Assembly (NCBI GenBank): GCA_947488295.1
Contig: CANKYU010000001.1
Span: forward strand, 854,183-918,182
DNA length: 64,000 nt
Direction: 5' to 3'
From: an uncultured Anderseniella sp.
GTDB taxonomy: Bacteria > Pseudomonadota > Alphaproteobacteria > Rhizobiales > Aestuariivirgaceae
The position numbers and the translations under genes were made by a program. Numbering within the stretch: position 1 is the first letter of the stretch; every line of letters starts with the position of its first letter. Of this stretch, positions 30,509-58,068 are shown piece after piece. The notes under the pieces are model-generated. The model saw only the letters and a program-made list of their open reading frames with translations. It was not told where the DNA came from and ran no database searches.

Positions 30509-31261
30509 ATGAGCAAGGGTATCGCACTGGTAACGGGCGCAGGGTCGGGCATCGGCAGGGCATGTGCCATTGCGCTGGCAACCGATGGCTGGACTGTGGT
30601 CCTGACAGGCAGGCGTGAAAGCGCCTTGCAGGACACCATCTCCGAAGCCGGTGAGGGCGGTGCGCAGATGCAGGCCATAGCGTGTGACGTCACCGATCCT
30701 GCCTCCGTTGATGCGCTGTATGCGGGCATCGAAAGGGCAAACGGCCGGATTGATGTCGTATTCAACAATGCCGGCACCAATGTGCCGCCGCTCAACCTGG
30801 CTGACCTGACCTACGACCAGTGGCGTCAGGTTATCGGCGTCAATCTGGATGGTGCCTTCCTGATCGCCAAAGGGGCTTTCGCCATGATGCGTGACCAGAA
30901 CCCGCAGGGCGGCCGTATCATCAACAACGGCTCGATCTCAGCCCATGTCCCAAGGCCGGGATCGGCTCCTTATACGGCGTCCAAGCACGCCATAACCGGG
31001 CTGACACGATGCATTTCGCTGGACGGGAGAGAGTTCAATATCGCCTGTTCGCAGATCGATATCGGCAACGCGGCGTCAGCCATGACCGACGCCATGAAGA
31101 AAGGCGTACCGCAGGCAGACGGCAGTATGAAACCGGAACCGGTGATGGATGTCTCGAACGTGGCCTCGTCCGTGGTCTACATGGCCGGTCTGCCGCTGGA
31201 GGCGAATGTCCAGTTCATGACGGTGATGGCCACCAACATGCCGTTCATCGGGCGCGGCTAG
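30509..31261 (+). CDS. SDR-family oxidoreductase
   Basis: [10 protein letters not shown] Rossmann motif, NNAG, YxASKHA catalytic tetrad. Confidence 0.85.
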
Positions 31262-31400
31262 ATCAGGATGATATTTGGTTGAATCAGCCAAATATCATAA
31301 ACCTGATCGCTTTTAGGGTGTTAGAGCAACTTTATGGGTTCAGTTGAACCCATGTTGCTCTAGGGCGCCCTTCCGGTTTCCGGAAAGACGCCCTTGATTG
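31262..31400. repeat. Intergenic mosaic repeat (RIME-like), copy A: palindrome 1 (gatcag..ctgatc enclosing atgatatttgg/ccaaatatcat), palindrome 2 (ctagagcaac-ttt-atgggttca / tgaacccatgttgctctag), plus a GC hairpin gggcgcc..ggcgccc
   Basis: ~85% identical to 43020-43137 outside hairpin 1; lies between convergent genes. Confidence 0.6.
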
Positions 31401-31406
31401 TGAGTG

Positions 31407-32609
31407 TCAGGCGCGCTTGCGCGCCGTCTTTGGTGCCTTGCCGGTGTCATCGCCACGCAGGTTGACGAGATCATCCAGCAGCCCCTGGGTGCCGTTGTGG
31501 ACAGCCAGGTACTGCACCTTGCCGGCTACCTTTTCCAGAGCTTCGAGCTCCTTCAGGCGCAGCATGACAGGGTTTTCCGCCATGACCTTCGCCGTGTTCA
31601 GCAGCGAACGCGTGGCGTTGGTTTCCTCACGGCGGCGGATGACATTGGCCTCTGCCTCCTTCTCCGCGGCAACCACCTGGTTCAGGATTTCGCGGACCTC
31701 ACCGGGCAGGATTACATCCTTCACGGCAATGTCGCCGACCTTGATCCCGACGGCGGCCATCTGCTCACGCACTGTGCGCGCAGCTTCGCTATCAACCGAC
31801 ACCTTGTCCGCCAGAATCTGGTCCAGCGTCTTGGTGCCGAAAGACTGGCGGAAGCCATGCTGCAGCGCCCGATACAGGGCCTCGTTGAAATCCTTCACCT
31901 TCGACGCAGCCTTTACCGGGTCTGCAACCCGGTAGGCGGCGGTGATGTTGACCCGGACCGAAACCCGGTCGCGGGTCAGGATTTCCTGGCCTGTCACCTC
32001 GATGGCGTGCTCGCGCACGTCAACCACCTTGACGTTCACCGGTCGCCCGATGTTCCAGAAGGCGTAAGCGCCTGGCTTCAGGGTCTGCTCAAATGCGTTG
32101 TCCACATAGAGTAGGCCTGCCTGACCTTCCTCGACATTGAAACGCTTCACCGCGTCAACCGGCTTGTGGCCGGCCAGCCGCTTGGCAAGCTTCTGGTCGA
32201 TGGCCAGTGAACCGGATACGTCGACGTGTTCAACGCTCCATGGTCCGGCATCGGTCCAGTAGACCTCGCGCGCATCAGGCCGCACCACGGTGTGAAGCCT
32301 GCCATCACGGGTCACTATCGCAACCTGGTTGTCAGATGTGCGCACTTCGGTGAAGTGGGCATCTGCCAACACCCGGCTGCCGGTAAACAATGCCGTTTCG
32401 TAAGTTGAACGAAACTCAGCCTGGTTGATATCATGCACCTCAACATCGATGCGCGACCTGAAGCTGGTCAGGACATGGCGTCCTGGACGGAGAATGTCCT
32501 TGAACTTGCCGTTTTGCAGTACGAGCGCGCGCTGGTTTTCCGGCACTGTTACAATGGTTCGAAACAGGTAATTTCTTGTCGTAGTCATAATCATTCTCTT
32601 TCCAGTCAT
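31407..32609 (-). CDS. SPFH/band-7 (slipin-like) domain protein with ~150 aa N-terminal extra domain
   Basis: SPFH core blocks followed by coiled-coil (VVAAEKEAEANVIRRRE...). Confidence 0.75.
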   Translation of the reverse strand: MTGKRMIMTTTRNYLFRTIVTVPENQRALVLQNGKFKDILRPGRHVLTSFRSRIDVEVHDINQAEFRSTYETALFTGSRVLADAHFTEVRTSDNQVAIVTRDGRLHTVVRPDAREVYWTDAGPWSVEHVDVSGSLAIDQKLAKRLAGHKPVDAVKRFNVEEGQAGLLYVDNAFEQTLKPGAYAFWNIGRPVNVKVVDVREHAIEVTGQEILTRDRVSVRVNITAAYRVADPVKAASKVKDFNEALYRALQHGFRQSFGTKTLDQILADKVSVDSEAARTVREQMAAVGIKVGDIAVKDVILPGEVREILNQVVAAEKEAEANVIRRREETNATRSLLNTAKVMAENPVMLRLKELEALEKVAGKVQYLAVHNGTQGLLDDLVNLRGDDTGKAPKTARKRA

Positions 32610-33030
32610 ACGTCATGTCATCTCAAGGCATGCTCGCTAACTTCCTTTTGTTGTCCGCCATATCGGCGGGGTGGTTTCCGGCAATTTGCTGTTTCAGGCA
32701 TGGGCCCCGTCTGCCGGATCGGCAGGGCACATGAAGCCAAAATTCTCAGGACCCCCTGGAGCGGGACATAACGGGTAACGAACGGAACCCGGATTTGCCG
32801 TCTGGGCATGGCGTGCGGGGCATCAGGGCGCTTGCGGAGCAGAACAGGGCGTTCGAGAACTTCCTGCCTGGTGCCGCAAGTGCACAAAATGCCTGGCAAA
32901 CAGGCGCATCCGGCAAAGTACCCGGTATTCGGGTTCGCATGCCGCGGCTCAATTTGCACCACCGACTGCCATCCGGCCGAAGCCTTCCGGCATAGAGCAG
33001 TGCTCGTCTTGCCTGGCCCACTCCAGAGGG

Positions 33031-33055
33031 CCTTTTTTGGTACCCGGCTTTCGCC
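33031..33055 (+). terminator. Rho-independent terminator on plus strand (ggcccactccagagggcc + tttttt)
   Basis: Perfect 5-bp GC stem with 8-nt loop followed by T6 run; no annotated plus-strand gene upstream. Confidence 0.5.
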
Positions 33056-33064
33056 GGAGAAGGG

Positions 33065-33138
33065 TTTAGAAAGAGGGAATTGAACCCTCGACCGACAGAT
33101 TTAAAGTCTGTTGCTCTCACCAACTGAGCTATTTCTAA
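33065..33138 (-). tRNA. tRNA-like gene with anticodon UUA (ochre-suppressor-like; tRNA-Lys-like body)
   Basis: Reverse complement folds as a perfect cloverleaf: acceptor TTAGAAA/TTTCTAA, D arm GCTC-AGTTGGTGA-GAGC, anticodon stem ACAGA/TCTGT with loop CTTTAAA (U33, anticodon T34T35A36, A37), T arm GAGGG-TTCAATT-CCCTC, discriminator A. Confidence 0.55.
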
Positions 33139-33139
33139 T

Positions 33140-33211
33140 GGAGGATAAGGGGAATCGAACCCGCTTCCGCCAGCTTTAAGGGCTGGTGCTCTACCGATGA
33201 GCTATATCCGT
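33140..33211 (-). tRNA. Degenerate tRNA-like sequence (possible pseudo-tRNA), anticodon loop CCTTAAA (also reads TTA)
   Basis: D arm GCTC-ATCGGTA-GAGC, anticodon stem CCAGC/GCTGG, T arm GCGGG-TTCGATT-CCCCT with one mismatch, acceptor with two terminal mismatches; separated from next tRNA by 1 nt. Confidence 0.35.
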
Positions 33212-33438
33212 CTAACCCGCAATTCACGCACCCGGCGGTCGCACATAGCAACGCCAATGGGCCTATGCCGGCGGAGTCTGCAGAACTCCCGGCCGCTGAA
33301 CGCTCGGACGATCACAAGCGGGAGCGGGGAGATACGCGGGTTTTTACAAGGATGCAATAGCCAAACCCGGATTTTTTTTGCATGTCGCAAAAATAAATCA
33401 GTACTGTGACATTTTTGCCACACACGACTAAGGCCTGC

Positions 33439-56080: not shown

Positions 56081-56164
56081 GTCATTCCCGTGAAAACGGG
56101 AATCCAATCCACGCCGGATACAATTGCCGATCTGGCATTGGATCCCCGTTTTCACGGGGATGAC
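56081..56164. repeat. Palindromic repeat element: two inverted copies of GTCATyCCCGTGAAAACGGGrATsm hairpin
   Basis: gtcattcccgtgaaaacgggaatcc ... ggatccccgttttcacggggatgac; same hairpin recurs at 57566-57591. Confidence 0.5.
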
Positions 56165-57565: not shown

Positions 57566-57660
57566 GTCATCCCCGTGAAAACGGGGATGACAAATGGGGC
57601 GGTGGTTCAGGTAACCATGTCATCCTCGGGCCTGTCCCGAGGATCCACTTTTGCGATAGC
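57566..57660. repeat. Palindromic repeat unit R1 (hairpin gtcatccccgtgaaaacggggatgac + conserved spacer + hairpin atcctcgggcctgtcccgaggat), immediately 3' of the GIY-YIG gene
   Basis: ~85% identical direct repeat of 57975-58068. Confidence 0.6.
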
Positions 57661-57664
57661 CGCG

Positions 57665-57952
57665 TTACGCAGTGAAATCGGCGAAAAGGTCTGCCCAGTC
57701 GGAATTTTGCTGCTCGATCAGGTTGATCTTCCAGGCCCGCCGGTAGCGCTTGATCGACTTCTCGCGCTGAATGGCATCACGCACATCGTCGTACTGCTCA
57801 TAGTAGACGAGCCGGTGAACATTGTAGCGCCGGGTAAAGGCACTGCCGGTTCCCGCGCGGTGCTGCAGTACCCGGTTGGGCAGATCACCGGTGACACCCA
57901 CATAGAGCGTTCCGTGCCTGCCTGACGCCAAAATGTAAGTGCAATACGCCAT
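57665..57952 (-). CDS. GIY-YIG nuclease superfamily protein (UPF0213/Slx1-like small ORF)
   Basis: 95 aa; CTYILASGRHGTLYVGVTGDLPNRVLQHR... GIY-YIG core and conserved Arg/Glu. Confidence 0.85.
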   Translation of the reverse strand: MAYCTYILASGRHGTLYVGVTGDLPNRVLQHRAGTGSAFTRRYNVHRLVYYEQYDDVRDAIQREKSIKRYRRAWKINLIEQQNSDWADLFADFTA

Positions 57953-57974
57953 GGCAGCACCAACCTAGCAAGAT

Positions 57975-58068
57975 GGATCCCCGGGACAAGCCCGGGGATG
58001 ACAAGTGGGGAGTGCGGTTCAGGTAACCATGTCATCCTCGGGCTTGTCCCGAGGATCCAGGTTTGCGT
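57975..58068. repeat. Palindromic repeat unit R2 (hairpin atccccgggacaagcccggggat + conserved spacer + hairpin atcctcgggcttgtcccgaggat), immediately 5' of the GIY-YIG gene
   Basis: Direct repeat of R1; the first hairpin again differs in sequence but stays palindromic. Confidence 0.6.

Follow-up and report, generated by a model that had tools for sequence, protein, structure and literature searches.

The 64,000-nucleotide stretch of uncultured Anderseniella sp. DNA described here (contig CANKYU010000001.1, positions 854,183 to 918,182; hereafter the window) contains two intergenic palindromic elements, copy A and copy B. These are very likely insertions of a small, non-autonomous mobile element of the Rhizobium intergenic mosaic element (RIME) type, a palindromic mosaic resembling MITEs (miniature transposable elements with inverted repeats) and bacterial interspersed mosaic elements (BIMEs). 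The element is mobile, spreads to new intergenic sites, and is plentiful in marine Anderseniella-like bacteria, and it is a selfish repeat, not a dedicated bidirectional terminator. Copies A and B arrived independently and recently, from two subfamilies; their independence follows from their membership of different subfamilies. For the annotation of the window, this accounts for two odd intergenic structures.

A repeat search of the window returned as its longest repeat a 108-nt direct repeat (31256-31363 and 43020-43127, 85% identity). Both copies have the same order of parts, namely CTAG, hairpin 1, a 12-nt linker, hairpin 2, and CTAG. In its general form, hairpin 1 has the outer stem GATCAGK/MCTGATC and an inner palindrome, with AAA as a 3-nt bulge; in hairpin 2 the outer stem is YTAGAGCAAC/GTTGCTCTAG, the bulge is TTT, and the inner palindrome is ATGGGTTCA-n-TTGAACCCAT. 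The parts of the two copies, and a hairpin adjoining copy A, are as follows:

31258-31363, + strand: copy A, the full 106-nt element from CTAG to CTAG; 'G' subfamily; E = 2e-30 by nhmmer with the family model; included in alignment A7
31261-31308: hairpin 1 of copy A, with outer stem GATCAGG/CCTGATC, AAA bulge, and inner palindrome ATGATATTTGG/CCAAATATCAT
31309-31320: linker of copy A, GCTTTTAGGGTG; the family consensus is GCTTTCAAAGTG
31321-31363: hairpin 2 of copy A, with outer stem TTAGAGCAAC/GTTGCTCTAG, TTT bulge, and inner palindrome ATGGGTTCA-g-TTGAACCCAT
31364-31393: GC-rich imperfect hairpin adjoining copy A, GGGCGCCCTTCCGG/CCGGAAAGACGCCC; the + strand has two C·A mismatches
43022-43127, + strand: copy B, the full 106-nt element; 'T' subfamily; nhmmer E = 4.5e-31 against the family model
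43025-43072: hairpin 1 of copy B, GATCAGT-ATGGTTTTTGACTGA-G-TCAGTCAAAAACCAT-AAA-ACTGATC, with inner palindrome ATGGTTTTTGACTGA/TCAGTCAAAAACCAT
43085-43127: hairpin 2 of copy B, CTAGAGCAAC ttt ATGGGTTCA a TTGAACCCAT GTTGCTCTAG

A preliminary description of this DNA had already recognized a pair of look-alike elements at these places, and the pair is real: besides the 85% identical repeat, a 42-nt hairpin 2 pattern occurs at both sites and nowhere else in the window, where its chance expectation is 0. The limits proposed then (31262-31400 and 43020-43137) must be moved to 31258-31363 and 43022-43127, which gives 106 nt for each copy. The layout of hairpin 1 was right as to the palindrome and omitted the 3-nt AAA bulge, and that of hairpin 2 was right as to the ttt bulge and gave the start in copy A as CTAGAG, which is actually TTAGAG. 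Hairpin 1 does differ in sequence between the copies and is nevertheless palindromic in each, as had been observed. The architecture recurs at the second site, as claimed, but the flanking sequence does not: the flanks of copies A and B are unrelated, and similarity ends at both CTAGs. The GC-rich hairpin at 31364-31393 had been counted as a third hairpin of the element. It is imperfect, occurs beside copy A only, and pairs better on the - strand when folded; because it is absent from copy B and the family consensus, and similarity ends at the second CTAG, it lies outside the element. Folding of both strands of both copies gave z-scores from -7.8 to -10.9, and none of 200 shuffles was as stable, which bears out the folding expected for the two copies. 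The termini of the element are weakly inverted (CTAGATCAG/CTAGAGCAA, matching at 7 of 9 positions), and the apex of hairpin 1 carries a GANTC (CcrM-type) site, GAATC in copy A (apex TTGAATCAG) and GAGTC in copy B.

We sampled the family in other genomes by scanning one genome per species for the exact inner stem of hairpin 2, which gave at least 113 loci with approximately 906 kb of fetched DNA. The family counts that follow (members, contexts, and covariation) refer to these loci, and the taxon range is accordingly a minimum. The invariance of inner hairpin 2 in this sample is by construction, since the search pattern required the exact core. Nearly all of the stretches (at least 113) with this stem came from Anderseniella metagenome-assembled genomes (MAGs) and related uncultured Alphaproteobacteria, and most of those listed carry the complete composite of hairpin 1, linker, and hairpin 2, in either orientation. 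Seventy oriented copies yielded the consensus CTAGATCAGGATGATTTTTGGTTGAATCAACCAAAAATCATAAACCTGATCGCTTTCAAAGTGCTAGAGCAACTTTATGGGTTCAATTGAACCCATGTTGCTCTAG, with conservation dropping immediately to background outside CTAG...CTAG.

Searching the fetched DNA with the family model (nhmmer) identified at least 151 non-overlapping members: 96 of full length, 23 having hairpin 2 alone, 9 having hairpin 1 alone, and 23 partial or chimeric. In the window, the same hidden Markov model (HMM) found copies A and B only. At about ten or more loci we found 43-nt 'mini' forms, in which a single palindrome stands between the left terminus CTAGATCAGG and the right terminus GTTGCTCTAG. Other members are mosaic, some with another inner palindrome in hairpin 2 and others with another left module before the same linker and hairpin 2. 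The preliminary description had offered a choice between a preserved structure and a variable insert in a constant frame; both apply at different scales, with stems that covary and whole inner palindromes that are swapped.

The most direct evidence for mobility comes from empty sites. The window is syntenic with three contigs (L115, L116, and L118) at approximately 80-98% nucleotide identity and with an Anderseniella MAG contig (L005) at approximately 80-84% identity. L115, which encodes an identical HemF, is empty at the copy B site and reads ...GATGCCGG-ATTAA-TGTCTCGCCCATG, where the window reads ...GATGCCGG-GCTAG(element)CTAG-TGTCCCGCCCATG. L116 and L118 are also empty at this site. Both in addition lack copy A, and the gene that precedes copy A, a short-chain dehydrogenase/reductase (SDR) family gene, ends there in GTAG followed by GGC, as to the right of copy A. 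All-against-all flank searches among the MAGs identified 10 further filled/empty pairs, and copies in L005 have their empty sites at three places in the window. Empty sites were found for the minis as well, L044/L084 versus L047 being cleanly aligned and L066 versus L080 less clean.

In clean junction pairs, 4 nt, the core, and another 4 nt at the filled site stand against 4 nt at the empty site. The empty-site tetranucleotides were TTAA, TTAT, CTAT, GTAG, GCAG, TTGA, CCAG, CTGA, and CTAG, or roughly N-Y-R-R, and the filled sites mostly have CTAG at both junctions. This suggests that the CTAG travels with the element. Two pairs keep the target tetranucleotide on one side only (L089, CCAG...CTAC versus empty CCAG; the L044 mini, CTAG...CTGA versus empty CTGA). 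We compared three junction models with these data, duplication of TA (IS630/IS427-like), duplication of 4 bp (IS5-like), and insertion on the 3' side of a tetranucleotide (IS200/IS605-like), and none fits every informative pair.

The palindromes themselves are maintained while their sequences change. We evaluated covariation in 88 full copies (alignment A7), in which 94.9% of stem cells are paired by standard pairs. Changes on both sides were seen at 20 of the 39 pairs, and 12 of the 14 inner hairpin 1 pairs covary. Double-change cells numbered 132 against 39.9 +/- 5 in shuffles, a value equaled by none of 500 shuffles, and the signal was lost when partners were slid. Three hairpin 1 column pairs of the alignment, with compensatory changes, separate the 'G' type (copy A) from the 'T' type (copy B): columns 10-45 hold G-C in the former and T-A in the latter, columns 14-38 A-T and G-C, and columns 21-31 G-C and A-T. 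A rare, near-private double change is also present in each window copy: copy A has A-T at 16-36, and copy B has C-G at 22-30. Mismatches of the G·U type on the + strand (80) were about as frequent as those of the A·C type, which are G·U on the - strand (72). This parity, together with the unbiased orientation relative to genes described below, indicates that the constraint acts on palindromy of the DNA, or on either strand, and not on a single RNA.

The gene context of the copies indicates where the element inserts. Gene layout was taken from an open reading frame (ORF) heuristic based on third-position GC content, which reproduced the layout of the ORF list and the called genes of the syntenic contigs. 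By this layout, all 96 full copies lie outside genes. Relative to the element, the neighboring genes are ++ for 26 copies, -- for 21, convergent for 22, and divergent for 14, with 13 copies at a contig edge. About half of the adjacent gene 3' ends (46/91) lie no more than 30 nt from the element, and at 32 of the 91 (31 of 83 copies, copy A included) the terminal TAG of the element is the gene's own stop codon. In copy A it is the left TAG (31259-31261) that ends the SDR gene. TAG stop codons are very frequent targets, and a gene hit in this way retains its stop.

Several observations concern the tetranucleotide CTAG and an insertion sequence (IS) that uses it. CTAG is approximately 8-fold depleted in the 906 kb of fetched loci (444 observed versus 3435 expected from base composition). 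By our estimate, which is not a count, most of the remaining CTAGs are inside elements, since a full copy has up to three. Terminal CTAGs decay mainly to CCAG or CTGG, reminiscent of conversion of the very-short-patch-repair type. An IS5-family, IS427-type IS of approximately 867 bp with two ORFs (DUF4096 and DDE_Tnp_1) occurs at L008 5649-6515 and L010 2177-3043. One MAG has this IS in two different copies, each time in the right-terminal CTAG and with a TA duplication; the inverted repeats of the IS (GGTTSAATCGACATTC) are unlike the ends of the element, which is its target. At their tips, these inverted repeats read GGTTCAAT and GGTTGAATC, the same sequences as the apexes of hairpin 2 and hairpin 1, an identity that is possibly due to chance (approximately 0.6% by hand calculation).

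The genes that adjoin the two copies are the following:

30509-31261, + strand: SDR-family oxidoreductase gene, with its TAG stop within the left CTAG of copy A
31407-32609, - strand: SPFH/Band-7 domain gene, convergent with the SDR gene, within a 2.2-kb island without counterpart in the syntenic relatives
42519-42974, + strand: TrmL-like SpoU methyltransferase gene, upstream of copy B
43138-44031, + strand: hemF, oxygen-dependent coproporphyrinogen oxidase, directly 3' of copy B; 381 bits against a cut-off of 297

Copy A thus lies between the convergent SDR and SPFH genes, where the preliminary description had placed it. Copy B lies between two genes of the same direction, the TrmL-like gene and hemF, and ends 10 nt 5' of the hemF ATG (43138). 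A recent insertion this close upstream of hemF could alter its translation.

The idea that such an element could be a bidirectional terminator arose from the position of copy A, and it deserves to be weighed in a general form, that is, that the element is primarily a (bidirectional) terminator or a stabilizer of mRNA 3' ends kept by selection. Its hairpins are very stable on both strands, half of the adjacent gene 3' ends lie within 30 nt of a copy, and repetitive extragenic palindrome (REP)/RIME-type repeats of S. meliloti yield stable small RNA fragments, for which a passive or a termination role has been speculated (PMC2873474). However, neither copy has a T-run after its stems, and promoter and terminator scans of copies A and B found nothing inside the elements. 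Copy B lies between co-directional genes with the hemF start codon 10 nt beyond it, only 22 of 83 contexts are convergent (14 of 83 are divergent), the two orientations are equally common, the corresponding loci of close relatives have no copy, and the equal frequency of G·U-type and A·C-type mismatches favors neither RNA strand. The closeness to gene 3' ends results from the use of TAG stop codons as targets. We therefore consider a primary role at transcript ends quite improbable. The sole terminator-like candidate near copy A is the GC-rich hairpin, which lies outside the repeat; it is the more plausible candidate for, and probably is, the local structure at the 3' ends of the SPFH transcript, the SDR transcript, or both. 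By analogy with REP-like stem-loops in 3' untranslated regions (UTRs), a passive effect on RNA may nevertheless occur.

The other explanations concern how the element moves or why its palindromes persist. It might derive from a transposon that depends on hairpins in single-stranded DNA, either a REP/BIME mobilized by a REP-associated tyrosine transposase (RAYT) or a palindrome-associated transposable element (PATE) of the IS200/IS605 type, inserting beside a CTAG-like tetranucleotide without duplication, and would then not be a MITE of the DDE type. A subterminal hairpin at each end, structure conserved beyond sequence, BIME-like shuffling of modules, and pairs that match the empty-site tetranucleotide at one junction only (L089 and the L044 mini) all agree with this. 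The polarity is inconsistent, though, with the target tetranucleotide kept at the left in one of these pairs and at the right in the other; several empty sites are 2-3 positions off CTAG; orientations relative to genes are equally frequent; and the sole transposase in the repeated DNA of the loci is that of the IS427-type IS, no scan for Y1/HUH or RAYT domains having been made. We judge this origin rather unlikely. Still less probable, in our view very doubtful, is that the palindromes are host protein-binding or methylation sites (e.g., CcrM GANTC) kept for chromosome or cell-cycle functions. GANTC is present at the apex of hairpin 1 in 59 of the 88 full copies (67%) and in both window copies in spite of their differing central base, symmetric palindromy would suit a dimeric binder of double-stranded DNA, and the CIR elements provide a precedent (PMC10969869). 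One third of the copies lack GANTC, however, and presence/absence polymorphism among close relatives speaks against a locus-specific need. We know of no protein partner. Finally, the pair could have arisen by a local duplication of the adjoining DNA, which the preliminary description had named as what would undo its proposal, or the two hairpin structures could be alike by chance; either reading could appeal to there being two copies only in the 64-kb window. Both are close to impossible given the unrelated flanks, the different subfamilies, the chance expectation of 0 for the hairpin 2 pattern, and the more than 150 copies in other genomes.

We thus favor a non-autonomous mobile element whose palindromes would act at the DNA level and not as RNA signals of one strand. 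Their recognition could fall to a transposase provided in trans or to a host protein; alternatively, template switching between the arms might keep them perfect. Effects on transcripts would be by-products of the landing site, with copy A forming a 3'-UTR stem-loop and copy B a structured leader of hemF. Several points count against insertion of a RIME-type mobile element as the explanation. That the flanking tetranucleotides are mostly CTAG even at copies whose empty sites read GCAG, TTGA, or TTAA means that a simple target-site duplication is insufficient, and the terminal inverted repeat (7/9) is weak. No transposase with matching ends was found in the approximately 906 kb of loci or in the window (shared repeats of at least 400 bp; tblastn with the IS transposase). 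Much of the covariation reflects two subfamily alleles that many copies have inherited. Sampling depended on the exact hairpin 2 core, and the taxon range seen is a minimum. In addition, the repeat with which we compare the element below, in an S. meliloti spacer, is equated with the published RIME1 by inference.

The surroundings of the two copies contain further features. Copy A sits at the left border of a 2.2-kb variable island (window 31364-33438) that separates the convergent SDR and class II aldolase genes and contains the GC-rich hairpin, the SPFH/Band-7 gene, a 450-nt spacer, and two tRNA(UUA) genes. The stop codons of the SDR and aldolase genes are 3 nt apart in L118, and L116 has other genes in this place, encoding an ATP-grasp protein and a 166-aa ORF. 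The SPFH protein had no PADLOC hit. The tandem tRNA genes (33063-33138 and 33139-33212, both on the - strand) have UUA as their anticodon and would decode the stop codon UAA. Both were called 'tRNA-Stop' by ARAGORN, their Rfam tRNA scores were 76.2 and 45.6 bits, and their anticodon loops are CUUUAAA and CCUUAAA; by sequence they are putative ochre-suppressor-like tRNAs. No tRNA genes were found in the syntenic contigs L115, L116, and L118, and no TAA-interrupted ORF was seen beside the two genes. On the 3' side of hemF are tandem paralogous genes for MFS transporters (44022-45224 and 45243-46457; repeat D2, 77% identity). The window also has a second, unrelated family of intergenic palindromic repeats (56081-56103, 57566-57588, 57604-57655, and 58016-58067), with hairpins GTCATYCCCGTGAAAACGGGRAT and a 52-nt unit containing CATCCTCGGGCYTGTCCCGAGGATC whose copies are 94% identical; those at 57566-57655 and 58016-58067 flank the stretch 57656-58015. 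The adenosine deaminase encoded in the window is at most 93% identical to any recorded protein, the nearest being metagenomic, and no record exactly matching the SDR protein was found. With the synteny described above, this identifies the host as an Anderseniella-like member of the Hyphomicrobiales, the genus Anderseniella being placed in the Parvibaculaceae.

Among known repeats, the closest relative is the RIME1 type. Osteras, Stanley, and Finan reportedly defined RIMEs in 1995, in a paper whose title names the S. meliloti chvI-exoS/chvG locus; from this we infer that the repeat in the chvI-chvG spacer is RIME1. Our family HMM matched this spacer at L122 364-423 (model positions 2-61, E = 6e-5). 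BLAST with the consensus matched 65 plasmid or chromid records of Rhizobium, Sinorhizobium, and Ensifer over positions 1-71, with E down to 1e-6. In the plasmid BLAST these Rhizobiaceae relatives were reached by the family consensus only and not by single-copy queries (copy A, hairpin 2, and copy B hairpin 1), which returned one R. sullae copy consisting of hairpin 1 only; hairpin 2 alone matched no plasmid. Both types are intergenic, approximately 105-120 nt long, present as many dispersed intergenic copies, and built as mosaics of palindromic modules, with two large palindromes and a short linker. Hairpin 1 is homologous (approximately 72-79% identity) with the same ATGAT...ATCAT inner stem, and its outer stem covaries, being GATCAGG/CCTGATC here and GATCACG/CGTGATC in Sinorhizobium. 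The linkers are similar (GATTCTAAAG versus GCTTTCAAAG), the outer stem of hairpin 2 is the same (TAGAGC...GCTCTAG), and the ends are CTAG or CTGG, the left TAG in R. leguminosarum again being the stop codon of the upstream gene. The inner palindrome of hairpin 2 differs entirely, being ATGGGTTCAnTTGAACCCAT here and GGGATGCGGGCGGAAAACCG..CACACTTTTCC..CATCCC in Rhizobiaceae. This homology, together with the mobility seen in the empty sites, supports the original suggestion of a RIME-like element or MITE. Beyond the RIME1-like unit, L122 has on the minus strand at 200-330 a second two-palindrome unit (TGCATGTTTCCTTTAATCG...CGATTAAAGGGCAAAAACATGCA, linker GATCAAAGTG, CTACAG...CTGTAG) with a linker resembling that of the window element; presumably this is RIME2.

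The label 'Rhizobium-specific' fails, since the hosts here are Anderseniella-like Parvibaculaceae and related uncultured Alphaproteobacteria. The RIME architecture therefore extends to marine Parvibaculaceae-like bacteria, with the second palindrome swapped. To our knowledge, the mechanism by which this class of repeats moves has never been worked out. The class now has many clean filled/empty pairs, and the use of TAG as a stop codon, along with CTAG at the junctions irrespective of the target, could make the mechanism testable.

With MITEs, the element shares its small size (106 nt), non-coding nature, and presence/absence polymorphism. Its termini, with their 7/9 inverted match, are kept exactly in the minis, the junction spacing is always 4 nt, and filled sites mostly have CTAG on both sides whatever the empty site reads; no parent IS with the same ends was found in approximately 0.9 Mb, the sole IS found being the IS427-type with different ends. 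The E. coli BIMEs/REPs and the Correia, ERIC, and RUP repeats are likewise short, non-coding, intergenic, hairpin-forming, dispersed, and modular, and BIMEs/REPs and MITEs also show insertion polymorphism between strains and are usually co-transcribed in 3' UTRs. The element nevertheless has no sequence similarity to BIMEs/REPs and MITEs, and its 4-nt spacing with CTAG on both sides differs from a clean duplication of TA or target. A match to a structured RNA family, as the preliminary description had proposed to look for, did not emerge: Rfam gave no family above noise (window at gathering thresholds; copy A at E <= 10), and the mismatches (80 versus 72) have no strand preference. From intrinsic terminators the element differs in having no GC stem with a U-tract and in occurring in all gene contexts and both orientations.

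Two further repeat families, Bru-RS (attributed to Halling and Bricker, 1994) and CIR, were compared by description. The intergenic palindromic repeats Bru-RS1 (103 bp) and Bru-RS2 (about 105-106 bp) of Brucella are favored insertion sites of IS711, an IS427-group element that duplicates TA at YTAR (PMC3163539, PMC2266754, PMC10800456). They resemble our element in its size (106 nt), in belonging to the same bacterial order, and in the IS427-type IS that enters its terminal CTAG with TA duplication, although BLAST of the consensus against Brucella/Ochrobactrum plasmids returned nothing. The CIR repeats of Caulobacter are CcrM-associated and strictly intergenic (PMC10969869). Like the element, they are long intergenic inverted repeats of alphaproteobacteria, and GANTC stands at the hairpin 1 apex here, but it is not universal in the Anderseniella family. 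For one CIR repeat, Chen and Shapiro reportedly placed GANTC at the center in 2003. It is possible, though in our estimation unlikely, that RIME1, the Anderseniella family, and perhaps Bru-RS and CIR are one order-wide superfamily of modular palindromic transposons that seek out CTAG/TAG stop codons and bring a CTAG of their own to each junction, their arms being kept palindromic in situ by template switching. We know of no bacterial MITE for which 4-nt overhang carry-over or a circle junction has been described; if such a superfamily exists, its mechanism would involve one or the other, comparable to the TTAA of piggyBac.

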